Source of the DNA: a virus
Virus record (IMG/VR): IMGVR_UViG_3300043395_003089
Coordinates: 25,168-89,167 of that record
Strand: one strand, 5' to 3'
DNA length: 64,000 bases
In this document: in pieces, positions 3,045 to 61,981 of the stretch
How the letters are laid out: each line of letters begins with the position of its first letter
Position numbering within the stretch: the first letter of the stretch is position 1
The notes under the pieces: generated by a model
Database searches by the model: none
Seen by the model: only the letters and a program-made list of their open reading frames with translations
Told to the model about the DNA's origin: nothing
Position numbers and translations under genes: made by a program

Positions 3045-3377
3045 ATGTACGCGCTGAGATCCTACGAACAGACCGCGGTGTATGACCCCACGAATCCCGA
3101 TCAACGGATTCGTGAAGGCTACGCCAGCGACCCGGGGCGCTGGACTTCCTACTACTGGAACCCAGTGGACACGGGTGCGCAGTTGCGCGGCTCGGGTCTC
3201 GGGATCTCGTGGTCGTCGCTCGGCTCGACGGCGCAGATCGGCGTGATCGCGGTTGTCGGCGCGCTCGCCGGCTACTTCACGTGGAAGCAGTGGGGCGACA
3301 AGCTCCGTCCGACCATGAAAAAGATCCCGATCATCGGCTCGCAATTCGCCGGCTACAAGCGGCGGGGGCGGCGCTGA
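3045..3377 (+). CDS. single-pass membrane virion protein
   Basis: GGAGG SD; LRGSGLG motif, then TM (IGVIAVVGALAGYFTW), basic C-terminus. Confidence 0.7.
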   Translation: MYALRSYEQTAVYDPTNPDQRIREGYASDPGRWTSYYWNPVDTGAQLRGSGLGISWSSLGSTAQIGVIAVVGALAGYFTWKQWGDKLRPTMKKIPIIGSQFAGYKRRGRR

Positions 3378-3380
3378 CCG

Positions 3381-3686
3381 ATGGCTCGCGTATCTGGTCG
3401 AACGATTCGAGCCATCCCATCGTTCAAGGCATTTTGCGCGTCCGTACACTCGACCAAGGCAGCGCGAACGCGCTGCGTCCGTCAATTGATGGACAGCGCC
3501 GAGACCAAGGCAGAGATGCGAGGCCTAGGGGCTCCGGGCTGCGTCGAGACGGTGAAGACGATCACCAAGCGTGACGGTAAAAAGGTCACGTTCCGTACGC
3601 GCGTTGGTGATGATTGCCCCAAAAGGATGCGGCCATCCACGCAGCATCTTCGGCCGTGGCAGTACAAATCGCAGGGTCGGCGCTGA
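3381..3686 (+). CDS. small basic Cys-containing protein (putative DNA-condensing core protein)
   Basis: Very K/R-rich; MRGLGAP motif. Confidence 0.65.
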   Translation: MARVSGRTIRAIPSFKAFCASVHSTKAARTRCVRQLMDSAETKAEMRGLGAPGCVETVKTITKRDGKKVTFRTRVGDDCPKRMRPSTQHLRPWQYKSQGRR

Positions 3687-3689
3687 CCG

Positions 3690-3938
3690 ATGGCTCGCAC
3701 CGTCACCAGCGAGAACGCGCGGATCAACCGGCGCTGCGAAACAGCGCTGAAGGCCTTGAGCCCGCGCGAGTGCGACGCCCGAGCGGCGCTGCGCGCGAGC
3801 AACGCATGCGCCCACGTTCAATGGGGCACGCGGCTCGACAAGCACGCCAAGCGCGTGCTCAAGCGGCACGGGACATCATGCCCGGCGTTGCGCTTCGATG
3901 GATTCCACGGAACCCGCCGACGTCGGCGCCGTCGGTGA
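3690..3938 (+). CDS. small basic protein with poly-Arg tail
   Basis: Ends FDGFHGTRRRRRRR; 4 Cys. Confidence 0.65.
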   Translation: MARTVTSENARINRRCETALKALSPRECDARAALRASNACAHVQWGTRLDKHAKRVLKRHGTSCPALRFDGFHGTRRRRRRR

Positions 3939-3950
3939 TAGGCTAGGGCC

Positions 3951-4193
3951 ATGCCCGCGTTGATGTCATTGGAAGGCCCCCGGGTCACGCACCTGGACGA
4001 GATCCGCAATCAGCTCTACGCCGCAACACCGCGGAGCTGGTGGCGAGCACAGGCCTCGCTCAAGGGCTTCACCGAGCCGTTCATCGCGCACCCGGTGTGG
4101 CTGCTTCTTGGCATCTTCGGCGGCATGTGGCTCGCGGGCAGCAAGACGGGGCAGACGTTGATCGCGAAGGCGAAGTACAAGCCCGGGTCTTAG
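3951..4193 (+). CDS. small membrane protein
   Basis: Preceded by GTGATAGGCT motif; TM VWLLLGIFGGMWLAG. Confidence 0.65.
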   Translation: MPALMSLEGPRVTHLDEIRNQLYAATPRSWWRAQASLKGFTEPFIAHPVWLLLGIFGGMWLAGSKTGQTLIAKAKYKPGS

Positions 4194-4338
4194 TCGTTGC
4201 CGTTCGAGCTCGCGTCTCGCTTGCACGATGGCGCGGATGAGCAGCGCGGCGCGATCTGGTTGGTTGGGCATGCTCGGGTTCTAGTCGGGAGCCGATCGGG
4301 AGGGCAAGCGGGAGCGATCTCGGTGTAGGCTAGACCGC

Positions 4339-4656
4339 ATGGCCAAGCGGATCGACGATAGCCACCAGCCGTACAAGCGCACGCGCAAGCTCGGGCCCGG
4401 CCCCGATCGGAGCCCGCCCAAGCTTCAGGCGCGCGACTGGGAGTGTCATCGCGGGAAGCGGCCCTACGAGCAGATCTGCGTGTGGGTCGGCGAGGGCAAG
4501 CGCTCGAACACCACGAACCGGATGAATCGCGCGAAGAAAAAGCGCTACAACAAGCGCTATCGCGCGTGGGCGAAGACGCATCGCGCGGCGCTGCGCAACA
4601 AGGGCCGGATCGGCACGTATCGTTGCCACAAGACCAAGCAGACGAGGTGCAAATGA
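4339..4656 (+). CDS. small basic Cys-containing protein
   Basis: K/R-rich; TGTAGGCT 7 nt upstream. Confidence 0.65.
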   Translation: MAKRIDDSHQPYKRTRKLGPGPDRSPPKLQARDWECHRGKRPYEQICVWVGEGKRSNTTNRMNRAKKKRYNKRYRAWAKTHRAALRNKGRIGTYRCHKTKQTRCK

Positions 4657-4783
4657 GCGTATCGGGCAACAGCCGAGTCGTGCCGATCCGAGAGCGCGAG
4701 ATCTTGGTGCTGCCGATCATAGACGCGACGCCGCCCGAGATGTATCGCCGGCTCGAAACTGACTTGCGGAAGGCGCTCAAGCG

Positions 4784-6149: not shown

Positions 6150-6407
6150 ATGAAACTACGCGAGCCCGAACCACTGCCGCACTTGCGCGACTGCCGAGCC
6201 GAGCCGTTACCGCTCGCGCGCTCGCATCCGCGCACGATCTTGCCGCGTTGGGGTCGGCGCTTTTTCGCGTTCGTCGACAAGACACTCGCGCGGCGTGACG
6301 CCCCGTTGTCGTTGCTCTGCGCGTTGCTGCTCGGCCTCGTATTCGTCGTGATCCCGACGGTGTTCGCGCTGTGGATCTGGCGTGGAGATTATCGTGTCGA
6401 GACGTAG
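6150..6407 (+). CDS. small membrane protein
   Basis: Class I motif upstream; C-terminal TM. Confidence 0.55.
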   Translation: MKLREPEPLPHLRDCRAEPLPLARSHPRTILPRWGRRFFAFVDKTLARRDAPLSLLCALLLGLVFVVIPTVFALWIWRGDYRVET

Positions 6408-6608
6408 ACGACGATGCGTCGGTTGCGGCGCGCTCTTTCTGATGCCGCGCGACCCGAGTCGCTACAACGATAGCTGCATGCGCTGCATGGGCTACACGGT
6501 GAAGACGCTCTTGCAACTACGCACGCTTCAGAGCCCGGCGCGCTACAACCGACAGTGCGAGGCCTGCACGCCGCGAGGAAGAACACTCAACGAGCGCCAC
6601 GAGCTCGA

Positions 6609-9488
6609 CTAGCGTGGGCGCGCGTAGTCGGCCGTGAGCGTCGCGTGAACATCGCCGGGCCGCGCGTCGTCGTAGAAAGGCACCGGTCGCATGGCGCCCT
6701 TCACGGGCACGTGCTGGCCATCCATCGTCTCGACCCAAGCGGTTCCCTGTTGCTTCCACTTGCGGCGCCACGCCTCGGCCTCGGGCAACGTCAGCGCCCG
6801 CGGGGCGTCGACGATCTTGCGGACGCTAACGATCTTGCCGTCGCGGCGCGTGACGAGGTTGTAGGCGACGCGATAGCCGGTGGTGGAGCCCATGCCGGCA
6901 TTCTTGCGCGCTGCTCTGCCACGAAGGCCGAACAGATGGTGCTTGCTGAGTGTGTGGTGAGCAGCGGCGAAGCGTCGATCCGTCGAAGGCGATTGCTCGA
7001 AGTCTCGAAGGAGCTTGCGTGCATCATCGAGCGACGCCGAACGCGGCAACGTACGGAGCAGCTTCGAGACCTGCCATGCGCCCATTGCGGCGACGCGGCG
7101 AGCTTCTTCCTCGGTATCAGCCGTGCCGAACGGGATCAGCGGCTTGGTCCATTCGCCGTTGCGAATGTGCGGCACGCTCGCGATCTCGTCGCGTTCAAGC
7201 CCCCATGCGAGGAGTAGCTCGGGTTCCCACTGGCCTGGATTTTTTGGATCCTCGTGAACGTCCCACCAGACGTTGTAGACATTGTTGGAGCCGTCCTGTG
7301 GATAGATTCTCACGGCGCCCGAGTCGGCGTGGTCATGATTCATCGTCGTCAGTACCGAGATCGGGATCTCGTTCTGCTCGGCGAAGTCTTCGGCGATGTC
7401 TAGCGCCTCGGGTCCTTCGTTGTTGATCAGCCGACGAAACATGTTGCGCTGGTTCCTGAGATCCTCGTCGTCGAGCTCGAAGTACGTTACGTTCTCGTTC
7501 ATGCGCCCCGCAGCCATCGCCTCTTCGCGGGTCGCGTAGCGCGACGTCTTGATCTTGCGGGCGCCGAGCCCGAACAGCTCGGGCTGCTCCTTCAAGTGAT
7601 CGCGCGCGGAGTCGCGATAGATCGCGTCGACGACACGTTGACGATAGGCTCCCTCGGTCAGATTTTTCCCGCGGTACAGCTTCAACTCGTTGGCGACTTC
7701 CCAAGCCTCGGCGCCGACGATCTGTTCGAGCTCGCGAAGCGACTTGGCTCGACGAGGGTAGCCAGCGCCGATGTGTAGCGGCTTGTTGTCAAGCAATGTA
7801 TTCCACTCGACATCGTAGAGTTGTTTGCCGTCGACGCTCCTCCCCGGGAGACGGGTGATCGTCCAACTCACGCGTGTCGCCGGATCGTCTGGGGCTCCAA
7901 CCGGGCTCAAGTAAAGCGTACGCAGCTCGCCGATCTTGATTCCGTGCTCTAGCGCGTAGTCGGTCGCAGCAACCAACTCGGCCGGCGTCTGCGCGGTCTG
8001 AGTGAGCATCTTGAAAGTCTCGGTCGGAAACTCGTTGCGGTCCTCGCGCTCGCCACGAAGCCCGAACAGCTCCTCGGGCTCGCTGTTGTCGCGATCGAGC
8101 GTATGGAAGATATCGCGTGCTTGCGGCGTGAAGCCTTGCGCACGCAGCTTCTTCGTCTCTTTCGCGAGTGCCCATGCCTGCGCGGTCGCCGCGCGTCGGC
8201 AGTAGTCCATGTTGCCTTGGTAGTGCTCCTCGAACTTGACGTGATCGCTCTCGCGTTCTTCGCCGCCAACGCGCGCTCCATCGATACGAACATCGAAGAC
8301 GGCTTTGCACTCGCCACCGTGGCGCTCGTTCACGCGCTTGACGCGCCACGAGACACGGTCACGCTTGAAGATGTCCTCGTTGTTGTCGAGCCAGAACGTG
8401 CCGCGGTTGTCGGTGCCGCCTTTGGACAGCTCGCTCAGCTTGATCTCGTGTTGAAGCGCGAGATCCTCGGCGGGAACAAGCGCGCCCGGATCGGGGTCAG
8501 CGATCAGCTCCTTGATCTGCTTGCTCACGCGTTGACGTTCGGCCAACGGATCTTCGCCGAGGCCGCGTTTCTGGCGCGCGACGCAACGCTTGAACGCAGC
8601 GGGTGGCATGTTGACGCTACACGTCTCGCCGAGATCGTCGAGCCCCTTTAGCTTGTAGCCTTTCTCTCGAAGTTTTTGCACTTCCCGCAGGCGCTCCTGC
8701 CACTCGTTGTGCGACTCATGCGGATGCCAGGCGTCGACCGGCGTCGAGCGCGTTGGTGGCGGCACTGGCGGCGTATCCTGTCGGCCGAGGCCTGAGATCA
8801 TCGGCAGATCGATCTTGCCTTTCTTCCACCACGAGTAGGCCAGCGCGCCACCGACGGCGCCGAGGATGCCAATCGCGAACGGGAGCCACGTCTTGGGCTG
8901 CGCAGCGTCGAGCACGAGCTTTTGCAAGCCCTGCGCGGTCACGCGCGCGGCGTCGCCGCCGAAGTGCACGCCATCGCGAGCTCGACCGACCATCGCCGTG
9001 ATCGGCCGCGGATCGATGTAGCGGTTCTTGCCGAACACGCTCTGCATCATCTCGATCACGGGCAGCGCCTGTTGGGTCAGCTGATCATTGGCGTACGCGA
9101 ACGGCCCGATCGCCCACACGTCGGCGCCGAGGCCCTTGTAGAAGTCGCGGATCTTCGTCATCGCCTGCTTGTCGACGTCGAGATTGAGCCCGATGTCGTT
9201 GGTGCCAAGCACGACGAAAACCTTGGTCGGCATGAACGCTTGATCGCTGCCGAGCAAGGCCTGGAAGTTCTCGCGGCCGAAGAAATTGTGCGCGCTGCGG
9301 CCCACACGCGCGTTGACACGCACGGCCGAGGCTCCCTGTTCGAGCAGCATGCTCGCGAGCAAGTCGCCGGGCTGGCCGGACGCGCGATTCGAGCCCGTGT
9401 CAACGTCCCAGATCTCGGGCCCGGCGTCGGGGCCGTGATGGCTCAACGAATCGCCAAAAATCAAGATGCGCTGCCCGCGGACGTCCAT
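6609..9488 (-). CDS. SGNH/GDSL hydrolase domain + TM + three tandem repeated domains (putative polyprotein)
   Basis: FGDSL, G, LGTND, DGVH blocks of the SGNH family; TM at ~aa 200-220; internal repeats bounded by LFGL(R)G. Confidence 0.85.
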   Translation of the reverse strand: MDVRGQRILIFGDSLSHHGPDAGPEIWDVDTGSNRASGQPGDLLASMLLEQGASAVRVNARVGRSAHNFFGRENFQALLGSDQAFMPTKVFVVLGTNDIGLNLDVDKQAMTKIRDFYKGLGADVWAIGPFAYANDQLTQQALPVIEMMQSVFGKNRYIDPRPITAMVGRARDGVHFGGDAARVTAQGLQKLVLDAAQPKTWLPFAIGILGAVGGALAYSWWKKGKIDLPMISGLGRQDTPPVPPPTRSTPVDAWHPHESHNEWQERLREVQKLREKGYKLKGLDDLGETCSVNMPPAAFKRCVARQKRGLGEDPLAERQRVSKQIKELIADPDPGALVPAEDLALQHEIKLSELSKGGTDNRGTFWLDNNEDIFKRDRVSWRVKRVNERHGGECKAVFDVRIDGARVGGEERESDHVKFEEHYQGNMDYCRRAATAQAWALAKETKKLRAQGFTPQARDIFHTLDRDNSEPEELFGLRGEREDRNEFPTETFKMLTQTAQTPAELVAATDYALEHGIKIGELRTLYLSPVGAPDDPATRVSWTITRLPGRSVDGKQLYDVEWNTLLDNKPLHIGAGYPRRAKSLRELEQIVGAEAWEVANELKLYRGKNLTEGAYRQRVVDAIYRDSARDHLKEQPELFGLGARKIKTSRYATREEAMAAGRMNENVTYFELDDEDLRNQRNMFRRLINNEGPEALDIAEDFAEQNEIPISVLTTMNHDHADSGAVRIYPQDGSNNVYNVWWDVHEDPKNPGQWEPELLLAWGLERDEIASVPHIRNGEWTKPLIPFGTADTEEEARRVAAMGAWQVSKLLRTLPRSASLDDARKLLRDFEQSPSTDRRFAAAHHTLSKHHLFGLRGRAARKNAGMGSTTGYRVAYNLVTRRDGKIVSVRKIVDAPRALTLPEAEAWRRKWKQQGTAWVETMDGQHVPVKGAMRPVPFYDDARPGDVHATLTADYARPR

Positions 9489-38620: not shown

Positions 38621-38974
38621 TTAGCGATTGGCCAGATGCGCCGACGCCAGGATCTCGTGGATTTGCTGGTCGTCTAGAGCGCCTTCGAGCTTCACCGGGC
38701 GCCGGTTGCGCGTCAGGAGTAGCGTCGTCGGTACGGCTTGGATCTCGTACTGATCGGCGAGCCCGACCACGCTCGGATCTTCGCTCGATGCATCGAGCAT
38801 GAGCACCGGGATCATGCGTGGCGGTACTTGGCCGCTCTCGAACCAGTACATCGGCACGCCGTGGCTGATCCACGCGTCGACCTGTCGCGCGAAGCGTGGC
38901 TTGTAGTCCTCGCATGCCTCGCAGCCCGGCATCGCGAAGACGATGATCATGCTCTTGACGTGGTCGAGGCTCAC
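38621..38974 (-). CDS. thioredoxin-family protein
   Basis: FAMPGCEACEDYKP, LADQYEIQAVPT (cis-Pro), EG. Confidence 0.88.
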   Translation of the reverse strand: MSLDHVKSMIIVFAMPGCEACEDYKPRFARQVDAWISHGVPMYWFESGQVPPRMIPVLMLDASSEDPSVVGLADQYEIQAVPTTLLLTRNRRPVKLEGALDDQQIHEILASAHLANR

Positions 38975-40595: not shown

Positions 40596-41093
40596 TTACC
40601 GGTTCTCGCTCGGCGGCGCGACCACACAGACGAAGCCCTGGAAGTCGATCGCGACTTTCAGTTGGTCGAGGTTCGAGATGACCGGAAACGTCAACGCGTC
40701 GAGCGTGATCTGGATCTGCTCGGCGCGGATGAGATACATCGGCTCGGCGAATTCCCACGTCCGCTCCGAGGAGCCCTTGCAGAGTAGCCCGAGCAGCGTT
40801 GGGTTCTTGGTCATGAGCTGCTCGCGGCCGAGATCGACGATCTTCGCGCGCACGAGCCCGAGGAGGAGCTCCTGGTCGGGTTGCGTGGGAAGGAGCACGC
40901 CCTCGCTGTCGAGCGCGTAGACACGAGGAATCATGCGATGGATCTCGAACGGCTTGTCCTGGCCGTTCTGGAACGTCGCGTCCGGGAATTGCTGCCCGGT
41001 TTCCGCCGACTCGATCAGAAACTCGCCCGAGATGGTGTAGGGCCAACGACTTTGGATGATCCGGTTGGCCCACGTAGCAGGAAGACGACCCAT
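40596..41093 (-). CDS. putative minor capsid (jelly-roll-like) protein
   Basis: Strong SD (AGGAGA); all-beta pattern; ends VAIDFQG. Confidence 0.55.
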   Translation of the reverse strand: MGRLPATWANRIIQSRWPYTISGEFLIESAETGQQFPDATFQNGQDKPFEIHRMIPRVYALDSEGVLLPTQPDQELLLGLVRAKIVDLGREQLMTKNPTLLGLLCKGSSERTWEFAEPMYLIRAEQIQITLDALTFPVISNLDQLKVAIDFQGFVCVVAPPSENR

Positions 41094-41834: not shown

Positions 41835-42539
41835 TTAGACCACGTTGCGGCGGATCAGGCCGTACAGGTACGACTTGACATCCGCGAACGTCAGCGCCGT
41901 CGAGTTGTCCGACGCCGGCTGGTTGATCACCAGCGGGGCCTCGGGCGAGAACGACAGCTTGTACGCGAGGTTCTCGCGCAGCCAGATCGGCAGGACGAGC
42001 GCGTTGCGATCGCGCGGCGACGGGACGCCGTTCTGCGCGAGCTCGAACGAGCTGTTGGTCGAGAACACGTTGTAACCGTGTCCCTGCGGGTAGTCCTGCA
42101 TCACGCCATACGTGTACTTCTTGTCGTTGTACGTGAATTCGAGGTACGTCACGCGATCGACCGAGAACAGCGTCTGGAGCTGCGGCGGGTTCGAGAGCGC
42201 GCCCGAACCGTCGGCGAGCACGACCGCGCCGGCCGTGGTCGCGCGCATCACGCGGACCATCATGATGCCGATGCCGTAGATGTACATCTCCCACGACATC
42301 GGGAGACCGGTGTCACCCGAGCGGGGGACGTTGGTGTCGACGCGGGTCGCCGCGCGCGTACCACCGGGGATCGGCTGCGAGCGGCCCGAGACGAACGCCT
42401 CGACGGGCGACGTCTGGCCGTTCACGAGCTGAACGGTCGAATAGAGCTTGTCATCGATCCAGTCCTCGATCGAAACGGTCTGACCGTTCGGGAGGGTGAT
42501 CGTCGTGGTTCCTGGTGCAACGCCAACAGTGCCGGCCAT
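41835..42539 (-). CDS. putative major capsid protein (single jelly-roll-like, 234 aa)
   Basis: Strong SD AGGAGA; beta-rich, no TM; YSTV...F...DTN...GLP...IYGI...LPIWL...LYG pattern; fold assignment is inference. Confidence 0.6.
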   Translation of the reverse strand: MAGTVGVAPGTTTITLPNGQTVSIEDWIDDKLYSTVQLVNGQTSPVEAFVSGRSQPIPGGTRAATRVDTNVPRSGDTGLPMSWEMYIYGIGIMMVRVMRATTAGAVVLADGSGALSNPPQLQTLFSVDRVTYLEFTYNDKKYTYGVMQDYPQGHGYNVFSTNSSFELAQNGVPSPRDRNALVLPIWLRENLAYKLSFSPEAPLVINQPASDNSTALTFADVKSYLYGLIRRNVV

Positions 42540-42717: not shown

Positions 42718-43359
42718 TTAGCCGCGACCACCACCGAGCAGCGTTGCGCCGTACGCTGCGCTGAGGCCGTGCACCGCCGGGCCACCGATGCCGCGCAGGT
42801 GCGAGGCCTGCGGGCTCATCGGGCCGAGCAACGAGACGGGCGGCATGCTCGCGCCGGGCGAAGCGAGCTGGTTGCCGGCGACGCCCGGGATCGTGCCCGC
42901 GGGCGCCGTGCGCTCGGCGATCATCGGCACGCCGAGGCCGTTCAGGTCACGAGCCATCGGGATGCCGAGGCCGTTGAGCGCGTTGATCTGCGGGATGCCG
43001 AGACCGGCCGTGCCGCCCGCGGCGGGAACGACGGCCGCAGCTGGCGCCGTGATCGTGCCGAACAGGAGCCGTTCGAGCAGCGCGATACCCGAGGCGAACG
43101 CCGCACCGAGCGCTGCGCCGAGCGCCGCGTGACGCGTCGACTTCATCGCGTACATCACGCCCGCGGTTGCGAGACCGGCACCGAGGCCGATGCCCTCGGC
43201 GTACTTGACGCCCGAGCCGCTACCGCTGTGACGAGCGAGCATCGTCGAGGCGCCGGAGACGCCGCCACCAATGAGCGTGCCCCACAGCGGCGACAGGCCG
43301 GGATTCTGCCCGTAGGCGTTGAGGCCGAGCAGATCGACTTTTCCGAGGGAGCGCGACAT
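42718..43359 (-). CDS. Gly/Ala-rich membrane protein with tandem LNGLG motifs
   Basis: 2-3 hydrophobic helices; AGLGIP-LNGLGIP-LNGLGVP. Confidence 0.75.
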   Translation of the reverse strand: MSRSLGKVDLLGLNAYGQNPGLSPLWGTLIGGGVSGASTMLARHSGSGSGVKYAEGIGLGAGLATAGVMYAMKSTRHAALGAALGAAFASGIALLERLLFGTITAPAAAVVPAAGGTAGLGIPQINALNGLGIPMARDLNGLGVPMIAERTAPAGTIPGVAGNQLASPGASMPPVSLLGPMSPQASHLRGIGGPAVHGLSAAYGATLLGGGRG

Positions 43360-43395: not shown

Positions 43396-43575
43396 CTACT
43401 TGCGGCGAGGCGAGCATTCGCCCGGTTGGAAAATCCAGCCCGAGCGCGTGCGCTTGCCCTTGCCGACGAAACAGAGCTTCGCGGACTTCTTCGTCCGCGG
43501 GTTGTAGACGCACTTGCACTGACCCTCGGTAGGAGCACCGAGGCCAGGACCCGAGAGCGTCATGATCTTTGCCAT
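43396..43575 (-). CDS. 59-aa basic Cys-containing protein (not in ORF track)
   Basis: MAKIMTLSGPGLGAPTEGQCKCVYNPRTKKSAKLCFVGKGKRTRSGWIFQPGECSPRRK. Confidence 0.65.
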   Translation of the reverse strand: MAKIMTLSGPGLGAPTEGQCKCVYNPRTKKSAKLCFVGKGKRTRSGWIFQPGECSPRRK

Positions 43576-43596: not shown

Positions 43597-44052
43597 CTAG
43601 CCGGCGCGGTAGTAGGTGAAGTATCGGCGTGACGCGAGCGCGCGACCGGCCTGCGCGATCGGGCCGCGCACCTGCAACGCGTTCGAGTGCTGCGTCAGAT
43701 GGCGAAGCATCTGCATCTGCGCCTGCATCTGCGGCGCGACCTGCGAGGCTGTCACGGTCTCGGGGCCGGGCGAGCTCGACGCTGCGATGATCGCCGCCTT
43801 CTCGACGGCCTTCTCGACCTTGCGCATCGCGAAGCGAGCCTTGACGTTGGCCCACCATGTAGCGATCGGACCCGGAGCGCCCAAGCCCGCGAGCTGCGTC
43901 GCGAGCGGTCCGCCCGTGGTGAAGGCCTGCGCGACTGCCTGGACGTCGGCCTGTGGGTTGTACCCCACGAACGGCCGGATGATGCTGGAACGCATGACGC
44001 CGTCGGGGCGCATGACGTGTGCTTCGCCGCCGTGCCTGAAAATCGTCGCCAT
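43597..44052 (-). CDS. putative virion protein
   Basis: QLAGLGAP motif; TAGTTT 6 nt upstream. Confidence 0.7.
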   Translation of the reverse strand: MATIFRHGGEAHVMRPDGVMRSSIIRPFVGYNPQADVQAVAQAFTTGGPLATQLAGLGAPGPIATWWANVKARFAMRKVEKAVEKAAIIAASSSPGPETVTASQVAPQMQAQMQMLRHLTQHSNALQVRGPIAQAGRALASRRYFTYYRAG

Positions 44053-46202: not shown

Positions 46203-46203
46203 G

Positions 46204-46548
46204 CTACTTGCGTGAGAGCCAGAGCCCGGCGATCGCGGCGACACCCGCGAGCACAGCGCCACCGACGGTCAATCGTGTTGCCCAGACATCGCTGATTCCG
46301 AGCCCGCGAAACCCGAACCGGCGATTCGTACAGCACCACTCGTGGCCGCTGTCGCAGAAGCAGTCACGCACGCGAGCCGCACCGAGCCCAGCTTCAGGCG
46401 GCGGCGCGTAGTAGGGCCCGACAGGCTGCGGCGTCATTTGATCCATCCCGGGAGGAAAGGCCACGTGACGGTTGTATTTCGGATTCTGCGCCCACCCTTG
46501 GTTGTATTGCCAGGCAGGCACCATGCCGAGAGACTTGGCGAGAATCAT
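46204..46548 (-). CDS. membrane-anchored virion protein
   Basis: AGLGA and FRGLG motifs, CFCD...CC, C-terminal TM. Confidence 0.7.
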
Positions 46549-47192
46549 GTCAGTTCTTTCTTGAAGTTCAGTTGAGCAAACTCGCCGTGGTATTTCACGG
46601 CGGCTTCATCATACGCCCTAGCCGCCGCTTCCGCTGTAGCGAAGGAGCCTAACGAGATTCGCCGACCATCTGCCCTAATCGCCGCCCGCCAGCTATTGGG
46701 GCCGGTTTGATCCACGCCTCGAAATCCAACCCAGTGCTGACGGTTTTGCATGTTCTGCGCACGCGACGCGAACCGTAGGTTCGCTCGACGATTATCGAGC
46801 GTGTCTCGATTGCGATGATCGATCATCAAGCCATCTGGTGGTGCGCCAATGATCAAGTGGTGCAAGAACACCCAAGACTTCCGCCTGTGCTTGACGCCTG
46901 CGTAGCGCTCGCTATGCAACTGCCAAGACAATATTGAGACGTGCTCGAAGATGTCTTCATCTACGAGCGAAAACACATAGCCGCTCGTCGAGCGTATCGC
47001 CAACCAACGGGCACCTTCAGGCGCTTGCTGCGCGAGTGCTTTGAGCTGCTCAACAGCTCGACGCTCTACAAGAACCGTGTTGGTTCGTTGCTGAATGCGA
47101 CAGCGTTTCGAGCACGTCTTCGCCGGCTCGGCGCTACGCGTGCTGAATTCAGCTCCACAACAGGCGCAGCTTATCAGCACGAACAACGTCAC
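46545..47192 (-). CDS. HNH homing endonuclease with AP2 domain
   Basis: LHHLI...[17 protein letters not shown]; WRAAI...[17 protein letters not shown]. Confidence 0.9.
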
Positions 47193-47204: not shown

Positions 47205-47894
47205 TCATGCTGGCAAATCGACGGCCTTGAAGTCGACGCCCTTCACGTAGACGCCCTCTTTATCGAACGACCTGTTCCCGGGCAACGTAGTGTCCAGCGG
47301 CACAAATCTGCCGTTGATCATCCCGCCACAGAACACGTGACTCCAATCAGGATCCTTGCGCTGACGGACAACGCGTAGACGCGGCTCGATGCCGTTGAGC
47401 GCGAGCAGCGTCGCACCAAGGATTGCATGATCATCGCAGTCACCGCCGGAAAACTCCCAGGTGCGTTTGGCGCTCTGGTAGAGATCGATGCCCTCGACCT
47501 TGCCGTCGGGATGGCGGATCGGGCCGATGTCGCCCGTGTAGCGCACGCGATTCTTGATCGCGTGATAGATCGCCTCGGCTTCGCAGCGCTGATCGCGCTC
47601 GGGGCACTTGTTCGTGATCTGGAGCGCGAGCTTTCTCATCTCTGCGTTCTGGACTGACTTATGGACAAGGTCTTGGATCGTCGCGATGCGCTGCTCGATC
47701 GGCATCTGGTTCGACGCGCGCAGGATCGTCTTCATGCGGCCATCGGAGTAGGTGCCGACGACCGGCGCTTGCTTGAAGCGACCGAGGCCCATGAGCACGC
47801 GGTTCTGTCGCGTCGCCCAGATCCCGAGCGCCAAGATGCCTAGACCGGCGAGCCCAGAGGCGATGATAACTTTCTTGCGCTGCGTGAGCTTCAC
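47205..47894 (-). CDS. membrane-anchored transglutaminase-like cysteine protease
   Basis: N-terminal TM; GDCDD (Cys), WSHVF (His), PLDTT (Asp) triad. Confidence 0.85.
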   Translation of the reverse strand: MKLTQRKKVIIASGLAGLGILALGIWATRQNRVLMGLGRFKQAPVVGTYSDGRMKTILRASNQMPIEQRIATIQDLVHKSVQNAEMRKLALQITNKCPERDQRCEAEAIYHAIKNRVRYTGDIGPIRHPDGKVEGIDLYQSAKRTWEFSGGDCDDHAILGATLLALNGIEPRLRVVRQRKDPDWSHVFCGGMINGRFVPLDTTLPGNRSFDKEGVYVKGVDFKAVDLPA

Positions 47895-47945: not shown

Positions 47946-49226
47946 ATGCTGCTCGCGCGCGATGGCTTCGGAGGGCTCGGTGCTTTCGGGGCCAACTACG
48001 TCCCCAAGCCGTCGCATACACCGTATACGCCGCAACCAAGCGCGGGGGTGCCGTACACACCGCAGCCGTCGACTACCACGAAGCGGTACACGTACGCGGA
48101 GCTGCAAACGAAATACGCCGAGTTTTTGCAGGCGCAAACCGAGCAGCAACGCATCGAAGAATTCGGGCTCGCGTCGATGATCCCGACTTGCCCACCAACG
48201 GCGATGTCGAGCGCGACGGCTTGCTACAACGGCGCCGCGCCGAACCTCCTGACGCCCGGTACGTTCATCGCCTATGGTGTGCCGTTCAACGTCAGCGAAT
48301 TCAAGCCTGGCGACGGACGGAGCTTCAGCAAGACGGTCGTTGCGAATCCGATCCAGCGTGAAGTGATCGAGCGCGCGATTCGTACGCGCTCGGCGCAGGT
48401 CGTCAGCAAGTACATGAGCCAGCTGGCGATCTCCGGCTACCCGGATCCGGCGAATTTGTCGATCACGCAGCTCGCGAAGCTGGCCCCGGATTTCGCGACC
48501 AACATCCGCGGGCTCAAATACAACCCGATCCTCCCGAACGACGACGAGCTCAACAACACAGGCGGCTATCGCAAGTGGATCGCGCGCGGTGGGTTTCCTC
48601 TTAGCTCGGGCGTCGCGTACGGCACGATCTCGCTCGACGAGGCGTACTCGCCGGTCGTCTGCCAATCGATCTTGTGCCGTTGCCCGGTCGCGTCGACGCG
48701 GCCGATCGCATGTGTGCGCGCGTATATCACCAAGGACGGCGCGATCTCGCAACACCCGAGCTCCGATTTGGCGTCGTTCTGGGTGTTCCTCAAGATCGAG
48801 AACGACAACCAGATCACCGTCTCGCTCGATTACGTCGAGAAAACGAAGTTGCAGAAGTTCGGCAACGCGATGGCGAGTCTGCTCAACGCAATCGCCAAGA
48901 CGCTCTGTGTCGCAGCGCCCGCAGCGAAAGACCAAATGAACAAGTTGGCGTTGCCCAAATGCGTCGACAAGGCTAACAAGCCTTGCAAGCAAGGCGCTAC
49001 GGGATGCACGTGCGTGACGCCACCAGACAGCACGGCGATGGCCGTCGGTACGACCAACCTCGTGATGCAGAAGTGGTGCGAGGGTTGGGCTGCTGCGAAC
49101 GCTGCGCCGATCGATTACCCGATCGATAACATCATGCCACCCGTTCAGCCCAAGCCGTTTCCATGGGCTTGGCTCGTCGGTGGGCTCGCGGTATTCGGTG
49201 GCCTCGTGTACGCTTCGCGTAGATAG
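47946..49226 (+). CDS. Cys-rich virion protein with C-terminal TM
   Basis: GTGATAGGCT upstream; FGGLGAFG at N-terminus; TM + RR end. Confidence 0.75.
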   Translation: MLLARDGFGGLGAFGANYVPKPSHTPYTPQPSAGVPYTPQPSTTTKRYTYAELQTKYAEFLQAQTEQQRIEEFGLASMIPTCPPTAMSSATACYNGAAPNLLTPGTFIAYGVPFNVSEFKPGDGRSFSKTVVANPIQREVIERAIRTRSAQVVSKYMSQLAISGYPDPANLSITQLAKLAPDFATNIRGLKYNPILPNDDELNNTGGYRKWIARGGFPLSSGVAYGTISLDEAYSPVVCQSILCRCPVASTRPIACVRAYITKDGAISQHPSSDLASFWVFLKIENDNQITVSLDYVEKTKLQKFGNAMASLLNAIAKTLCVAAPAAKDQMNKLALPKCVDKANKPCKQGATGCTCVTPPDSTAMAVGTTNLVMQKWCEGWAAANAAPIDYPIDNIMPPVQPKPFPWAWLVGGLAVFGGLVYASRR

Positions 49227-49253: not shown

Positions 49254-49745
49254 ATGCTGCTCTCCACGCCAACAGCCCTTCCCGTCGAGCTCATGGGGCC
49301 GATGCTCCAAGGGCCCGCCGAGGTAAAGTCGCTCCAACAGGCGCTCAAGAATTTGAGCGTCGCGACGCAGCGACCGGACATCGATCCGGGGCCCATCGAT
49401 GGCAACGTCAACCCGCAAACGGTGCAGGCCGTCATCGCCGGGCAAACGCTGCTCTCGGCCGAGCTGCCCTCGTGGGCGTTCGTCGCGTTGCAGGCGGCGC
49501 TCGCCGCGGGCGCGATGACGAGCAAGGCCAAGGAAGCTGTTGCCGCAGCGGCTGTTCCGCTCACCGTCGCCGCGAACACGGCCGCGGTGAAGTTCAAGAC
49601 GGCCAATCCCACGATGATGCCGAGCAGCGTCGTCGGTTTCTTCGCACCAGGCTGGTACAAGACGCCACTCGGGATCGCGTTGATCCTCGGCGCGGCGTTC
49701 GTCGGCTGGAAGCTGTTCTTCACTCCCCCCACCAAGGCGGCATGA
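49254..49745 (+). CDS. membrane-anchored protein with peptidoglycan-binding-like domain
   Basis: VKSLQQAL...DPGPIDG...T; WYKTPLG anchor. Confidence 0.7.
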   Translation: MLLSTPTALPVELMGPMLQGPAEVKSLQQALKNLSVATQRPDIDPGPIDGNVNPQTVQAVIAGQTLLSAELPSWAFVALQAALAAGAMTSKAKEAVAAAAVPLTVAANTAAVKFKTANPTMMPSSVVGFFAPGWYKTPLGIALILGAAFVGWKLFFTPPTKAA

Positions 49746-49748
49746 GCC

Positions 49749-50045
49749 ATGTTTCAACTTCGAGGACTCTCGGCAGATGATCAGTGGTCGGAAGCGGCCT
49801 CTGGCGAAGTGGTCGACATGAACGCCGAGGCCGGCGGCGCCAAGATCGTCGAGTCGATCAAGAATTTCTTCACCAGCGCGCCGACCGTCGCCGCGGTGAT
49901 GACGCAACCGACGCCGACGACGCAGACGACGACCATGTTCGCGATCCCGCGCCCCTGGTACAAGACGCCGATCGGTATCCTCGCGATCATCGGTGGCGGC
50001 TTCGTCGGCTGGAAGTACGTACTCCCCAAGCTCCGTAAGAAATAA
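49749..50045 (+). CDS. small membrane-anchored virion protein
   Basis: MFQLRGL; WYKTPIG anchor. Confidence 0.7.
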   Translation: MFQLRGLSADDQWSEAASGEVVDMNAEAGGAKIVESIKNFFTSAPTVAAVMTQPTPTTQTTTMFAIPRPWYKTPIGILAIIGGGFVGWKYVLPKLRKK

Positions 50046-50054
50046 GGAGTCGTC

Positions 50055-50480
50055 ATGTTGCAGCTACGCGGCAGTGGGCTCGGTGAAGATTGGTCGACGA
50101 TGACGCCCGACGAGGCACCGACCGGCGAGGATCGCCCTGCGGCTGCGGTCTACTGCGGAAAGAAGTACGGCACGACGAGCCCATACTTCCAACCGTGCGT
50201 TGACTTCTACGCCGGCCCGCACATCGGCGAGTACGTTCCATCGAGTGCGTCACCTGGTACCAAGATCACCAAGTTGCCGCCGATCTTCGGTGGTGGTTCT
50301 CCGTCGACGTTCTTGAACCCGAGCTCGACGGCGACCAACAAGATCGGCTCGGGTGGCGTGCTTCCGCTGCCGTCGATCCCCGTGGTCTTTCCGGCCGGTG
50401 TGCCGTGGTACAAGACGCCGCTCGGCATCGGCGCGCTCGTACTCGGCGGGATCTTCGCGTATCGTCGACTCAAGCGCTAA
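50055..50480 (+). CDS. small membrane-anchored virion protein
   Basis: MLQLRGSGLG; WYKTPLG anchor; AGGAG SD. Confidence 0.72.
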   Translation: MLQLRGSGLGEDWSTMTPDEAPTGEDRPAAAVYCGKKYGTTSPYFQPCVDFYAGPHIGEYVPSSASPGTKITKLPPIFGGGSPSTFLNPSSTATNKIGSGGVLPLPSIPVVFPAGVPWYKTPLGIGALVLGGIFAYRRLKR

Positions 50481-50489: not shown

Positions 50490-50804
50490 ATGTCGACCGC
50501 GGCTGACGCAGCACAAGGGTTCTTGAACGTTGTTGCAGACCCGTGCTTGCCGCAGGTCGGGCAGCTCCTGTTTCGCCTGCACGAGCTCGAAGCGACGCCC
50601 GACGATCCGACGCAGCCACCAAAGCCGGTGCAAGCCTCGCTCGGCATCGGGCTCTGCAAGGTCGTCACGCCGCTCAAGGCCGTCGTGTTCCTGCGCGAGA
50701 ACCCGGTGATCGGCGTCGCTGCGATCGCCGGTTTCTTCGGGATCTTCGTTGGCATCGGTTATCGCCTCGGGCATCGCTCGGGCCGTAGGAGCCTCAAGCC
50801 ATGA
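50490..50804 (+). CDS. small membrane protein
   Basis: AAGGAG SD; C-terminal TM. Confidence 0.68.
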   Translation: MSTAADAAQGFLNVVADPCLPQVGQLLFRLHELEATPDDPTQPPKPVQASLGIGLCKVVTPLKAVVFLRENPVIGVAAIAGFFGIFVGIGYRLGHRSGRRSLKP

Positions 50805-51058
50805 GTGCCGCGATTGTCAGGTTCACCAACAGCGTCGGCGTCGCGCCGGGCACGACGACGATGCAGCTCGGTCAGATCGGCGGCACCCGGCGCTGGGATA
50901 TGTACCAGGACATGATCGCGCTCAACGACGCGTCGATCCCGCCGCCGCCGCTTCAAGACCGGCCAATCCGTTGGGATATCGTCGCCATCATCGGCGGCGG
51001 GTCGCTGATTGTCGCGCTCGGCGCGGCGTTCCTCGCGGCTGCATTTGCCCGGCGATGA
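50801..51058 (+). CDS. small membrane protein
   Basis: ATGA coupling; C-terminal TM + RR. Confidence 0.68.
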   Translation: MSAAIVRFTNSVGVAPGTTTMQLGQIGGTRRWDMYQDMIALNDASIPPPPLQDRPIRWDIVAIIGGGSLIVALGAAFLAAAFARR

Positions 51059-51668: not shown

Positions 51669-51952
51669 GTTGTGATAGCCTAGCGGCATGCTTCGCAGCG
51701 TGTTCGCACCCTACGGCAAGATCCCGGGCTCGCGTCGCGCCGGGCACGACGACGATGCAACTCGGTCAGATCGGCGGCACCCGGCGCTGGGATCTGTACC
51801 AGGACATGATCTCGCTCAACGACGCGTCGATCCCACCGCCGCCGCTTCAAGACCGGCCGATCCGTTGGGATATCGTCGCCATCATCGGTGGCGGGTCGCT
51901 GATCGTCGCGCTCGGCGCGGCCTTCCTCGCGGCTGCATTCGCCCGACGATAG
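51662..51952 (+). pseudogene. chimeric duplicate: 5' end of 52188 gene joined out of frame to a 3' copy of the 50801 gene
   Basis: 51662-51732 = 52162-52232; 51732-51950 nearly identical to 50838-51056. Confidence 0.85.
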
Positions 51953-52187: not shown

Positions 52188-52802
52188 ATGCTTCGCAGCG
52201 TGTTCGCACCCTACGGCAAGATCCCGGGCTCGTGGCCCACCGGCATCACACAGAGCCGTGGGCCCCGCGGCGAGTATTTGCAGCCGTACGATCCGCAGTA
52301 CAACACGCGTGATCAGGCCGGCTACTACCACGACACGCCGCTCGGCAGGCCGTCGCTGTTCCAGCGCTGGCGCCGTCGCCGCACGCTCAAGAAAGCGCTC
52401 GGCGCGATCCCGACCGATTTCGAGATGGCGTCGCTGTACAACTACACGCCGGTCGCAAGCGGCTGGATCTCGACCGAGCAAGGCTACCTGACGCCGCCGT
52501 GGCTACCACCGAACGGCTACAACCAGGGCGGCTACCCGGTGCCCGTGCAGCCCAACGACGGCGGCGGCAAGCCCGAGAGCTCGATGGCGCTGCGGTTCTA
52601 CACGCCCGAGCGCGCCCGCGATCCCAACTGGAACACGACGACGCTCGGCGACGGTGCGCCGGCCAGCGTCGAGGATGTCGTCGCGCAGATGAACGCGCAC
52701 AACGATCGCGTGTTCGCGCTCGCACTGGTGTCGACGACGGCGGTTGCCGTCTCGGCGATCATCACGGTGTTCCGCACGCTGCGGCTCATCCGCAAGGACT
52801 AA
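52188..52802 (+). CDS. membrane-anchored virion protein
   Basis: GTGATAGCCT upstream; C-terminal TM. Confidence 0.72.
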   Translation: MLRSVFAPYGKIPGSWPTGITQSRGPRGEYLQPYDPQYNTRDQAGYYHDTPLGRPSLFQRWRRRRTLKKALGAIPTDFEMASLYNYTPVASGWISTEQGYLTPPWLPPNGYNQGGYPVPVQPNDGGGKPESSMALRFYTPERARDPNWNTTTLGDGAPASVEDVVAQMNAHNDRVFALALVSTTAVAVSAIITVFRTLRLIRKD

Positions 52803-53868: not shown

Positions 53869-54159
53869 ATGCTCGGTACAGCGCTTGGAAGCCCCTCGAC
53901 AGCGATCGCCGGTCCCAAACTGCCAACGTACAAGACCGCGGCGCGCGTGCTCGAAGGCTCCAAGGGCTCCGGGCTCGCGCTCGTCGGCTGGACGATGGCA
54001 CGTACGATCCTGATCGCGCCGGCCATGCAAATCGTCGGCGTCGAATGGAAGAAAGCATGGCTCGGGGCGTTGCTGGCATCGGGCATCATGTCGCTGTTCG
54101 TGCTGATTCGGCTTTTCGACGCGCGGAAGACGAACCTCGCTGGCTTGCGACGGCGCTAG
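53869..54159 (+). CDS. small membrane protein
   Basis: Two hydrophobic segments; ends LAGLRRR. Confidence 0.65.
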   Translation: MLGTALGSPSTAIAGPKLPTYKTAARVLEGSKGSGLALVGWTMARTILIAPAMQIVGVEWKKAWLGALLASGIMSLFVLIRLFDARKTNLAGLRRR

Positions 54160-58927: not shown

Positions 58928-59000
58928 CGCAAGGCAGTATGTCGATTTGCTTATTCGTCGTCAAATTGACCGTAAAACAAATCACGAGTACATAGGACGC

Positions 59001-59746: not shown

Positions 59747-59776
59747 CTGGCAGAGCAGCGCGCTAGGATGCGCGCC

Positions 59777-60244
59777 ATGCGACCAACATCCAAGCCGTGC
59801 TGCAAATGCAAGCGCGTGCTTCCGTTGGAAGCCTTTTACGTATACGCCAGAGGACGTCTAGGACGCGCGTCTAGATGCAAGAGTTGCCAAAAGGCGTACT
59901 ACGCGAAGCGATGGAAACGGCATCGCAAACGTCTCGCTCCGAAATTGGTTGCGTGGAAGAAAGCGAATCCGACAAAGGTTCGTGCGATCTGGCTTCGTCG
60001 TTATGGGCTAGATGCAGCCGCGTATGATGCGCTACTCGTCGCTCAGGATGGGCGCTGCGCGCTCTGCTCCGGGGCTTTCGACTCGACGAGCAAGCTCGAC
60101 AAACCCTGCATCGATCATGATCATGCTAGTGGCGTCGTACGTGGAGTTGTGCATGGCCGCTGCAATTTGATTTTGGGAATGGCCCAAGAGCGCCCATCGA
60201 TTCTCGACGACGCCGCGGCATATTTACGGAGGCACGGCAAGTGA
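59777..60244 (+). CDS. recombination endonuclease VII-like (His-Me) nuclease
   Basis: YGL...Y..L..Q.G.CALC...IDHDH.SG.VRG..H..CN..LG. Confidence 0.88.
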   Translation: MRPTSKPCCKCKRVLPLEAFYVYARGRLGRASRCKSCQKAYYAKRWKRHRKRLAPKLVAWKKANPTKVRAIWLRRYGLDAAAYDALLVAQDGRCALCSGAFDSTSKLDKPCIDHDHASGVVRGVVHGRCNLILGMAQERPSILDDAAAYLRRHGK

Positions 60245-60597
60245 TCACGACACTCCTGGTTTTTGGTTTGCTCTCAACGGCGCTGTTCTATCTAGGCAGT
60301 AGAGCACTCATCACACGCTGGTTGTGGTCACGCTACCCGTTACCACTGGCGCGCTGGGCCGATTGTCCGTCCTGCTCTGGTTTTTGGTACGGCGTGTTCT
60401 TGTCGCTCGTCATAGGCGATCTGTTCTCGCCGCTCCTAGAACTAGGAGTACAAGCACCGGTAGCTGCACAAGTTGGACTTGAAGCTTTTCTCGTCGGCCT
60501 GACGATGCTCGTCTTGACGCCGCTCGGTGCTGGTCTCATGCAACACGCTCTCAACGTCGTCGGCTCGGCCGTCGACACAGACTCCAACGAAGGATAG
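60241..60597 (+). CDS. DUF1360-like membrane protein
   Basis: CPSCSGFW between TM segments. Confidence 0.6.
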   Translation: MITTLLVFGLLSTALFYLGSRALITRWLWSRYPLPLARWADCPSCSGFWYGVFLSLVIGDLFSPLLELGVQAPVAAQVGLEAFLVGLTMLVLTPLGAGLMQHALNVVGSAVDTDSNEG

Positions 60598-60600
60598 GAA

Positions 60601-60981
60601 ATGCCCGCCAAGATCGAGATGTCGCTCGACGAGTACAAGGCCGTCGAGAACGAGCGCGATACCGCGCTCAAGGAAGTAGCGCGGCTACGCGCCGAGTTGA
60701 TCGACGCCAAGCTCAACGTCGTCGTCGAGGGTAGCGATACCAACGTGCGCAAGCTGGTCACGCTCACGCGAGCGCTACTCGACGTCACGCGGTTCGCCGT
60801 CGGGCAGTTGCCGCCCGAGACGCACAAGGGCTGGCCGTTCGCGGCGCTCAAGACGGCAAGCGATCTGTTGCCGGTGCTACCCGATCACACCGTCGACGAC
60901 ATCTCGATCGCGAACGAGTTTCGCTCGTTCGTGAAAGAGGGCGAGCGCGTCGAGCGCGTTCGCGAGGAGAAGACATTGTGA
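60601..60981 (+). CDS. hypothetical protein
   Basis: Natural ORF in operon. Confidence 0.65.
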   Translation: MPAKIEMSLDEYKAVENERDTALKEVARLRAELIDAKLNVVVEGSDTNVRKLVTLTRALLDVTRFAVGQLPPETHKGWPFAALKTASDLLPVLPDHTVDDISIANEFRSFVKEGERVERVREEKTL

Positions 60982-61205
60982 ATGTACCTATCGAGCTTGC
61001 CAGCAAGCTGATCGGCCCTGTCGCGGTGATCCGCACGGCTTTGGACCTGCATGACGATGGTGTTGTACTCGGCGAGCAAAGCATCGCCGAGATCAGGCGG
61101 CTCCTCGACATGATCCAAACGATGAGGAAGCCATATCCCGGCGTCGAGCTGCCGCAGTCGATCAACGCGACCATCGAGCGCGCTACCAAGTTGGTGGCGT
61201 CGTGA
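60978..61205 (+). CDS. hypothetical protein
   Basis: GTGA coupling. Confidence 0.55.
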   Translation: MNVPIELASKLIGPVAVIRTALDLHDDGVVLGEQSIAEIRRLLDMIQTMRKPYPGVELPQSINATIERATKLVAS

Positions 61206-61528
61206 AGTGGACCCCGTTGCTTGCCTACTTCGTCGAGCGCAAGCGGCCCGTGCAGATCGGCCTGTTGACGGTTCCTGATGGCGCCCCACGCGGCATCGTC
61301 GAGGAGTTTCCCGTCGAGGGTTTCTTCGCGATCGAAGCAACGATGCACGCGACGAGCAACGCGACCGGCGAAGTCGTTGCGAAGGGCGCCACCAAGCTGA
61401 TCTTCCACGTCGATGACGTTGGCTGGTTGATGCCGATCCCACCGGAGTTACTCTCGGTCGCCGAGCAAGCTACGCAGGGCTCGGCGTTGACACCAGAAGA
61501 ACGCAAGGCGCTCGGCCTCGACGAGTGA
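61202..61528 (+). CDS. hypothetical protein
   Basis: GTGA coupling. Confidence 0.6.
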   Translation: MKWTPLLAYFVERKRPVQIGLLTVPDGAPRGIVEEFPVEGFFAIEATMHATSNATGEVVAKGATKLIFHVDDVGWLMPIPPELLSVAEQATQGSALTPEERKALGLDE

Positions 61529-61608
61529 CGAGTTTGATCGGCGCCGCATGATCGAGTAAAACTAGGATCACGATCGCCGCTGTAATCGACGCCAGCGACG
61601 CCGATCCA

Positions 61609-61642
61609 GGCGCCCGATACGAGCCCCCTTGTATCGGGCGCC
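61609..61642 (+). terminator. strong hairpin after 59001-61528 operon
   Basis: GGCGCCCGATACGAG-cccc-CTTGTATCGGGCGCC; no clear U-tract. Confidence 0.5.
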
Positions 61643-61687
61643 CCTCGACATTTCCAATCGCGCCGGGTTTGTTCTAAGCTCGGTCGG

Positions 61688-61981
61688 GTGAACGTCCCCA
61701 ACGTCGCCCCCAACATGCCTCACGTGCTGCCCGGCATGCCGAACGCAGCCCCCAACGCGCCCGTTGCGATGCCGTCGCAGCAAGCCGGCCAAGTGCAGCT
61801 CGGCTGCATGGGCTGCGGTCAGAAGGGCCTCGGCTCATACTGGGAGCGTGTGCCGTTGTGGGCCAAGATCGCTGTGCCGATCGGTGTGATCACCGCGGTC
61901 ATCGTGATCGCCGTCGCCGTCACGAATCGGCGCCGCGTACTGCCCTACGAGGCCTTCGCCGAGGAAGAGATCGACTACTAG
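61688..61981 (+). CDS. membrane-anchored virion protein
   Basis: QLGCMGCGQKGLGS then TM + RRR. Confidence 0.65.
   Translation: MNVPNVAPNMPHVLPGMPNAAPNAPVAMPSQQAGQVQLGCMGCGQKGLGSYWERVPLWAKIAVPIGVITAVIVIAVAVTNRRRVLPYEAFAEEEIDY

Follow-up and report, generated by a model that had tools for sequence, protein, structure and literature searches.

The window analyzed here comprises 64,000 nucleotides, bases 25168 to 89167 of the 89,167-bp viral record IMGVR_UViG_3300043395_003089 in IMG/VR, with a guanine-plus-cytosine (GC) content of 61 to 68% (mean, about 63%). Calling genes with a codon-bias model yielded 97 genes in the window and 134 in the whole record. Pfam and PHROGs recognized replication and DNA-modification genes, an integrase, two pectate-lyase-type spikes, a GH25 lysozyme, and a transglutaminase-like protein. 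The last of these, encoded at 47205-47894 and called the enzyme below, lies in the late module (window 37000-64000), many of whose products share a short glycine-centered motif, L-x-G-L-G. Precursors processed by the adenovirus protease (adenain, MEROPS C5) are cut according to the code (M/I/L)XGX↓G and (M/I/L)XGG↓X, where the arrow marks the cut. A first-pass annotation, made from the letters of the window alone, had pointed out this type of motif in predicted structural, membrane, or basic proteins and had proposed that virion precursors are cleaved there, possibly by the membrane-anchored enzyme. Every occurrence that it listed, from gene 3045-3377 through gene 61688-61981, was confirmed in the translations, as was LMGLG following the transmembrane (TM) helix of the Cys-His-Asp enzyme itself (Table 1). 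As a whole, that interpretation is partly supported. As a short linear motif, L-x-G-L-G is specific to the lineage and selected at the level of the protein; it occurs in many unrelated late-module proteins, in disordered linkers, at extreme N termini, or beside TM helices.

The enrichment was measured against shuffled sequences. With shuffling within each protein of the record, the broad pattern [MLI]xGxG was observed 51 times, compared to 25.6 expected (z = 5.4; 26.4 expected and z = 5.2 in a repeat run), and [MLIF]xGLG was observed 11 times, compared to 2.7 expected. The excess of GLG was limited to the late module (13 versus 4.0 expected; z = 4.6), and the carriers were biased toward late, membrane, and basic proteins, as had been claimed. 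The reversed and neighboring patterns GxGx[MLI], [VAF]xGxG, GAG, and LGL stayed at expectation in the same genome. What is enriched is L-x-G-L-G rather than the broad adenovirus pattern: in the pooled proteins of five related genomes, L.GLG occurred 44 times against 6.8 expected, by far the first of 400 X.GYG patterns, and the unrelated protein clusters containing it numbered 21 (6.3 expected). Over seven close genomes we counted 55 sites, compared to 10 to 11 in shuffles confined to blocks of 8 to 20 residues, the enrichment being 5- to 6-fold. Forty-one of these sites lay within 15 kb of the enzyme gene (4.1 expected) and 14 elsewhere (5.2 expected), and 11 of the 55 fell within the first 15 residues of their proteins, as in MLQLRGSGLG, MLFLRGLG, and MITMNGLG. 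The claim of an adenovirus-like code therefore held for its (M/L/I)xGxG form, sharpened to L-x-G-L-G, but not for its (M/L/I)xGGx form: [MLI].GG. was not consistently above expectation in the five genomes, and L.GG was seen 13 times in the record's genome, with 14.2 expected.

GC-rich genomes and membrane proteins are both rich in Gly and Leu, and the motif might accordingly be a meaningless product of composition. In GC-rich DNA, GLG turns up often whichever frame is read, and the motif was picked after the sequence had been read. About 7 of the 44 five-genome sites, judged by eye from their contexts, lie inside TM helices; a hydropathy filter drops 4 of the 55 seven-genome sites. Furthermore, L.GLG ranked 13th, not first, in an unbiased scan of all four-letter patterns with homologues collapsed (P = 5.6e-6), meaning that it is strong yet no lone outlier. 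Against chance stand the local block shuffles, the lack of enrichment of permuted and neighboring motifs, the absence of an excess in a distant clade within this virus group, and the fact that the motif keeps its position inside linkers that otherwise vary. Nor was there an excess in three unrelated high-GC tailed phages, Mx8, phiC31, and L5, processed with the same gene caller but with start choice lacking the ribosome-binding-site and start-codon bonuses used for the viral genomes (observed/expected: GLG, 23/24.8; [MLI]xGxG, 44/42.7; [MLIF]xGLG, 4/4.3). The explanation by chance is thus largely refuted, and we regard it as highly improbable; the motif is very probably real and non-random. 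The synonymous codons beneath it vary and its excess is specific to the coding frame, which rules out a DNA-level repeat or promoter as its source; the varied codons indicate that selection acts at the protein level. Separately, GLG was about equally frequent in the codon-aligned antisense frame of all seven close genomes (31, versus 24 coding, in the record's genome), so that antisense open reading frames (ORFs) miscalled in GC-rich DNA would falsely add GLG-rich "proteins."

Related viruses were collected by searches based on the enzyme, which returned 19 related viral loci, and on a capsid-protein candidate (41835-42539), which returned 28. A scan of viral sequences with the single enzyme protein as the query gave no matches, whereas an alignment query succeeded. 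The comparison took in ten related genomes, nine of them whole and the tenth nearly so. Sixty-nine families are conserved in three or more close genomes, and eight of them keep L.GLG in at least two genomes, compared to zero to four for permuted or neighboring control motifs, which bears out the expectation that the motif would be conserved in homologues. All eight belong to the late or small-basic modules. They are the families of the enzyme, of 42718-43359, of 43597-44052, of 50801, of 52188/53869, and of 3045, a family of about 325 residues, and a family of small proteins adjoining the enzyme gene in relatives, in which L.GLG is present in five of six genomes. The product of 46204-46548, which lies outside the gene-call set, was provisionally assigned to this last family by its resemblance in sequence features and by its position. 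An apparent occurrence of the motif in DNA polymerase was rejected as an artefact of inteins that had joined the enzyme and polymerase clusters.

The carriers, which we infer to be virion proteins, hold the motif in recurrent settings. In the 42718-43359 product, three tandem 11-residue units of the form (R)ALNGLG(I/V)P span residues 119 to 145 (window 42925-43005); among 120 homologues, 69 have three units and 112 have L.GLG, and the 11-residue spacing recurs in 161 cases. Orthologues of 43396-43575 keep the N-terminal MTLSG and the later LG[AD] across a variable insert, and L-x-GLG or GLRG precedes a variable insert in 8 of 10 orthologues of 43597-44052. The 47946-49226 protein contains FGGLG, and one of its orthologues begins with MLFHRGLG. 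Orthologues of 3045-3377 carry ELKGLG and NVRGLG. In the 52188 family, relatives have SLRGLG/E, QLRGLA/E, or SLSGLG/Q, while the record's own copy has only TTLGD. This family is encoded by two genes in one relative (G001:61333-62016), the second of which begins with MLTLGLG, so that the domain boundary with the motif is the gene boundary there; in another (G005:64847-65632), the 53869 family is fused with the 52188 family. These points of gene fission and fusion coincide with linker and motif positions. The 6609-9488 protein matches GDSL families narrowly under their cutoffs (PF13472, 25.0 bits versus 32.9; PF00657, 22.7 versus 23.6), and none of the three orthologues found has an equivalent of the middle part that bears its motifs.

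Table 1. Genes and motif sites of the window discussed in the text (window coordinates)
Feature	Coordinates	Strand	Motif or evidence
Two small basic proteins, 3045-3377 and 3381-3686	3045..3686	+	QLRGSGLG and EMRGLG, respectively
959-aa protein with SGNH hydrolase head	6609..9488	-	After the head: ISGLG, KRGLG, LFGLRG, LFGLG, LFGLRG
GH25 lysozyme with peptidoglycan-binding domain	25477-26376		
Capsid-protein candidate, 234 aa, most conserved late gene	41835..42539	-	No motif
Gly-rich membrane protein, 213 aa	42718..43359	-	LNGLG twice, AGLG, LRGIG; orthologue alignments
Cys-rich basic protein, 59 aa	43396..43575	-	N-terminal MTLSGPGLGA; orthologue alignment
151-aa protein	43597..44052	-	QLAGLG, aa 52-58 (window 43879-43893); orthologue alignment
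Small Cys-rich protein	46204..46548	-	EAGLG; FRGLG immediately ahead of C-terminal TM helix and basic tail
HNH/AP2 homing endonuclease gene	46545..47192	-	Pfam HNH_3, 4.2e-9; phrog_99, 5.6e-35
Transglutaminase-fold Cys-His-Asp enzyme, 229 aa	47205..47894	-	Pfam, homologues, AlphaFold2 model, fold matches
LMGLG (aa 34-38), then Arg, in enzyme linker	47781..47795	-	Homologue alignment, model confidence (pLDDT)
426-aa protein	47946..49226	+	N-terminal MLLARDGFGGLG; C-terminal TM helix and basic tail
Two paralogous small proteins, 49749-50045 and 50055-50480	49749..50480	+	Starts MFQLRGL and MLQLRGSGLG
204-aa protein	52188..52802	+	Family has motif between N-terminal domain and C-terminal TM domain
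96-aa TM protein	53869..54159	+	Ends NLAGLRRR; orthologues keep [LM]AGL, then basic tail
97-aa protein	61688..61981	+	QKGLGSYW immediately ahead of TM helix

Several of these proteins also resemble one another at their C termini. Both paralogues at 49749-50045 and 50055-50480 end in WYKTP(L/I)GI followed by a TM helix and a basic tail, and this ending is common to three adjacent proteins (49302-50480) with unrelated N-terminal parts. Further late proteins terminate in a TM helix and an Arg/Lys tail, resembling sorting signals. The gene for one small C-terminally anchored protein is duplicated with 96% identity (50801-51058 and 51755-51952), and this protein has the nonapeptide VGVAPGTTT in common with the N terminus of the capsid candidate; VGV, GVA, and VAP are among the few tripeptides conserved across three families.

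The enzyme consists of an N-terminal TM helix rich in Gly, Ala, and Ser (residues 7 to 28), a basic stretch, a disordered linker, and a catalytic domain from about residue 42 to residue 229. Its match to Pfam family PF01841 over residues 89 to 201 scored 24.1 bits, above the cutoff of 23 (E = 4.6e-5). More than 433 homologues were found, many of which carry PF01841, and C153, H186, and D201 are invariant and in that order in the 30 homologues aligned. The AlphaFold2 model has a mean predicted local distance difference test score (pLDDT) of 84.5, with values below 50 for residues 31 to 38. It resembles the putative proteases 3kd4 (Z = 13.7; root mean square deviation [rmsd], 3.1 Å over 141 aligned residues) and 3isr (Z = 11.5; Foldseek E = 1.2e-5) and, further, TglA (Z = 10.8), factor XIII (10.5), PeiP (10.3), PeiW (9.4), LapG (9.3), and CPR-C4 (9.1); the transglutaminases TG2/3 were also among the matches. 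Judged by the profile score, the order of the triad, and the predicted core fold, the enzyme is a member of the transglutaminase-like superfamily. Membership in the BTLCP family was not found, as only PF01841 matched in Pfam (E ≤ 0.01). These fold matches, together with the lack of any Pfam match to Peptidase_C5 (adenain) among 91 window proteins, agree with the earlier remark that the enzyme differs from adenain in fold. The spread of the matches means that the fold permits a protease, an isopeptidase, or a cross-linking enzyme.

Although the length of the enzyme's linker varies, x-G-L-G-R is its conserved element, and [LMFIV]-G-[RHKQ] stands at the site in 84 of the 107 homologues. The enzyme is about as conserved (47 to 56% identity) as core late genes such as 42718-43359 (47 to 58%) and 40596-41093 (51 to 63%), and less so than the capsid candidate (68 to 79% in the same comparison). 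Of 12 further viral records bearing the capsid candidate, 11 encode the enzyme, among them all 7 whose completeness is rated at 90% or more; it is thus a core gene of the virus clade, in keeping with the predicted co-occurrence of the protease in related contigs. This near-universal presence precluded a phyletic contrast between genomes with and without it. In some distant relatives, an intein-like insert splits the transglutaminase-like gene exactly at the catalytic GGDC/DD (loci L085 to L090, at G015:85995-87482, and also G012 and G013); inteins usually sit in essential genes. Two further cysteines of the enzyme, C97 and C104, are invariant, and a thioredoxin-like protein with a CxxC motif (38621-38974, minus strand) is kept in all five compared genomes, which hints at disulfide chemistry in the compartment of these proteins. 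The homing endonuclease gene that separates the enzyme gene from that of the small FRGLG protein is not at that place in relatives and is no part of the motif/enzyme system.

The phyletic distributions of the motif and the enzyme differ. In the clade whose enzymes are at least 47% identical, the enzyme is TM anchored with a G-L-G-R linker, and 9 of 10 loci have 3 to 11 L.GLG sites per 20 kb, compared to about 0.4 expected (the exception, L016, has 1 versus 0.46 expected). An intermediate clade has a TM-anchored enzyme with a T-L-G-R linker and zero to one L.GLG site per 20-kb locus. In a distant clade the enzyme is soluble, without an anchor, and L.GLG is at expectation genome-wide.

The type of particle bears on what such a motif might do. 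The capsid candidate, with 68 to 88% identity in close relatives, gave no Pfam, PHROG, or PDB sequence match and no Foldseek match at E ≤ 0.001. Its AlphaFold2 model is beta-rich and of low confidence (pLDDT, 54), and its best fold matches are jelly-roll capsid proteins (SPV1, Z = 7.0; P23-77 VP17, 6.3; HCIV-1, 6.2), which are weak and within the background range. Together with the many C-terminally anchored small proteins, these matches are compatible with a tailless, membrane-containing particle. Pfam (E ≤ 0.001) identified no terminase, portal, HK97-type capsid, or prohead protease among 91 window proteins (23 families matched, all listed), and no prohead protease of the S49/S78/U35 type adjoining a portal or HK97-fold capsid gene, although divergent forms could escape such a search; PHROGs did not recognize any of these genes either. 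Likewise, no prohead protease, terminase, or portal was among the 25 listed of 36 Pfam families matched by the 103 proteins of a complete relative (G004; 85 kb, with terminal repeats). A candidate terminase at 6220-8832 (genome coordinates) was rejected, as its PHROG terminase matches cover only an intein and the intein-free orthologue looks primase/AAA-like. Inteins are present in the record's DNA polymerase, SNF2 helicase, and primase-like genes.

Comparison of the record with a phage DNA database gave no match. The host is presumably bacterial; a closer assignment was rejected, as enzyme matches in cellular genomes lie only in metagenome bins of discordant phyla. These matches (L106 to L108 and P0107) are on short contigs binned as Actinomycetes, Polyangiales, Blastocatellia, and Tepidisphaeraceae and are probably viral and mis-binned. 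The literature searched yielded no relevant report of a transglutaminase-like protease in phage maturation.

We propose, tentatively, that the enzyme is a site-specific endoprotease that cuts the tagged proteins at the motif, a reading that we hold to be possible rather than probable. Its narrow cleft would accommodate Gly on either side of the cut, and the enzyme would trim tagged proteins at or just after G-L-G during particle assembly and free its own catalytic domain from the membrane anchor; the logic would be that of adenovirus maturation on a different fold. Such a site is plausible because LapG, a transglutaminase-like cysteine protease, cuts an adhesin at a di-alanine (PMC10990149) and the adenovirus protease cuts pVI at IVGL↓G (PMC4246237). 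Counted for cleavage are the enrichment with its controls, the clustering near the enzyme gene, the conservation in eight families, and the G-L-G-R of the enzyme's linker, together with the invariant triad, the confident fold with the proteases LapG and CPR-C4 among its matches, the core-gene status, and the intein insertion. Also counted are the 52188-family motif, which falls precisely where two domains meet and where one relative has a break between genes, and the absence by Pfam of a canonical prohead protease, terminase, or portal family from the window and from the listed families of the complete relative.

A number of observations weigh against this proposal. Cutting the tandem repeats of the 42718-43359 family would give 11-mers, the split 52188-family gene still has the motif at its start, and several leaders are only 7 to 10 residues long, so that their removal would have no obvious purpose. 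Isopeptidases, cross-linkers, and amidases are also known among enzymes of the transglutaminase fold, and the small motif-bearing ORFs in relatives may include miscalls. Moreover, the L.GLG excess is limited to one subclade, while the intermediate and distant clades have the enzyme without it. The enzyme thus predates the motif excess, and the protease model would require drift in its specificity.

On a docking model, by contrast, an older enzyme would have been recruited into a newer tagging system. The motif would then be an assembly tag that is bound and not cut, a putative pocket on the capsid lattice or on a scaffold tethering membrane and internal proteins, the enzyme included. The three regular repeats would suit multivalent binding to a symmetric capsomer, and the placement of motifs at extreme N or C termini and beside TM helices fits such a role, as does retention of the motif when the 52188-family gene is split. 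A motif-bearing enzyme linker in this subclade, in contrast to deeper clades whose enzyme is soluble or has only TLG-R, likewise fits recruitment without a change in specificity. However, five residues with one free position are short for a specific docking peptide, and the model of the capsid candidate that might bear the pocket is of low confidence. We consider docking unlikely, though the tandem repeats and the tag kept on the split gene mean that it stays close to the protease model.

The enzyme and the motif could also be unrelated. The enzyme would then be a wall isopeptidase or endopeptidase acting in entry or lysis, with a helix of the signal-anchor-release type, or a cross-linking transglutaminase, and the motif would serve structurally, as a turn or linker element spread by shared ancestry or recombination among fast-evolving small membrane proteins. 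The fold matches to the phage-encoded pseudomurein endoisopeptidases PeiP and PeiW, to factor XIII, and to TG2/3 are in line with this, as are the Gly/Ala/Ser-rich TM helix, the presence of the enzyme without a motif excess in deeper clades, and the paralogy of several carriers (e.g., 49749/50055 and 3045/50055). A role in lysis would, however, duplicate the GH25 lysozyme already encoded at 25477-26376, and the enzyme is as conserved as core late genes, whereas lysins are expected to be exchanged more freely. The enzyme itself keeps the motif in its linker, the motif offers no Gln or Lys for cross-linking, and its occurrence in 21 unrelated clusters with varied codons speaks against simple shared ancestry. 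We think this explanation improbable, and what likelihood remains goes to other chemistry, such as sortase-like transpeptidation.

Taken further, the protease proposal would mean that a clade of uncultured bacterial viruses of 77 to 138 kb, with no recognizable tailed-phage hallmarks and a weak jelly-roll candidate, matures by Gly-directed proteolysis at L-x-G-L-G with a membrane-tethered transglutaminase-fold protease. This would be convergent with the Gly-specific proteases of adenovirus, poxvirus, and African swine fever virus and the first such case in a bacterial virus of this kind; we put this wider claim forward as doubtful. Gly-centered proteome-wide maturation codes are known in adenoviruses and large eukaryotic DNA viruses, and we know of no Gly-centered maturation protease from membrane-containing or non-tailed bacterial viruses. 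If the cleavage code is true, such maturation arose independently on a different protease fold, and the particle proteome becomes predictable for an uncultured clade whose environmental relatives number in the hundreds; a docking signal would instead be a new particle-sorting code. Either way, it links otherwise unannotatable proteins functionally.

Four known systems invite comparison. LapG and DvhG, the latter proposed as a membrane-bound form of LapG (PMC10990149), are site-specific endoproteases; they act on two paired small residues of a linker that lies on the outer face of the inner membrane. LapG belongs to the same fold superfamily as the viral enzyme (rmsd, 3.8 Å over 134 aligned residues; a structural resemblance only). 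These BTLCP enzymes differ in being cellular, in regulating adhesin release, and in acting on an Ala-Ala motif in one substrate, whereas the viral enzyme has many putative substrates in the late module and no BTLCP match in Pfam. PeiW and PeiP of archaeal viruses are, like our enzyme, virus-encoded transglutaminase-fold cysteine enzymes; they are lysis enzymes that act on cell-wall isopeptide bonds, with a different domain architecture and no known proteome-wide peptide motif. Encapsulin cargo-loading peptides are short Gly/Leu-rich terminal tags that direct unrelated proteins inside a protein shell; they are bound and not cleaved, the shell has the HK97 fold, and no enzyme is involved. It is this kind of cargo loading that L-x-G-L-G would resemble as a docking tag. 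The adenain system differs from ours in several respects: the viral enzyme described here is a transglutaminase-like Cys-His-Asp protein (adenain, His-Glu/Asp-Cys) and is membrane anchored, XGGX is not enriched, the host is presumably bacterial, and cleavage is putative. What the two have in common is one virus cysteine enzyme and a short Gly-centered motif distributed over several core, membrane-lytic, and capsid-associated proteins, with L-x-G-L-G fitting the first form of the adenovirus code.

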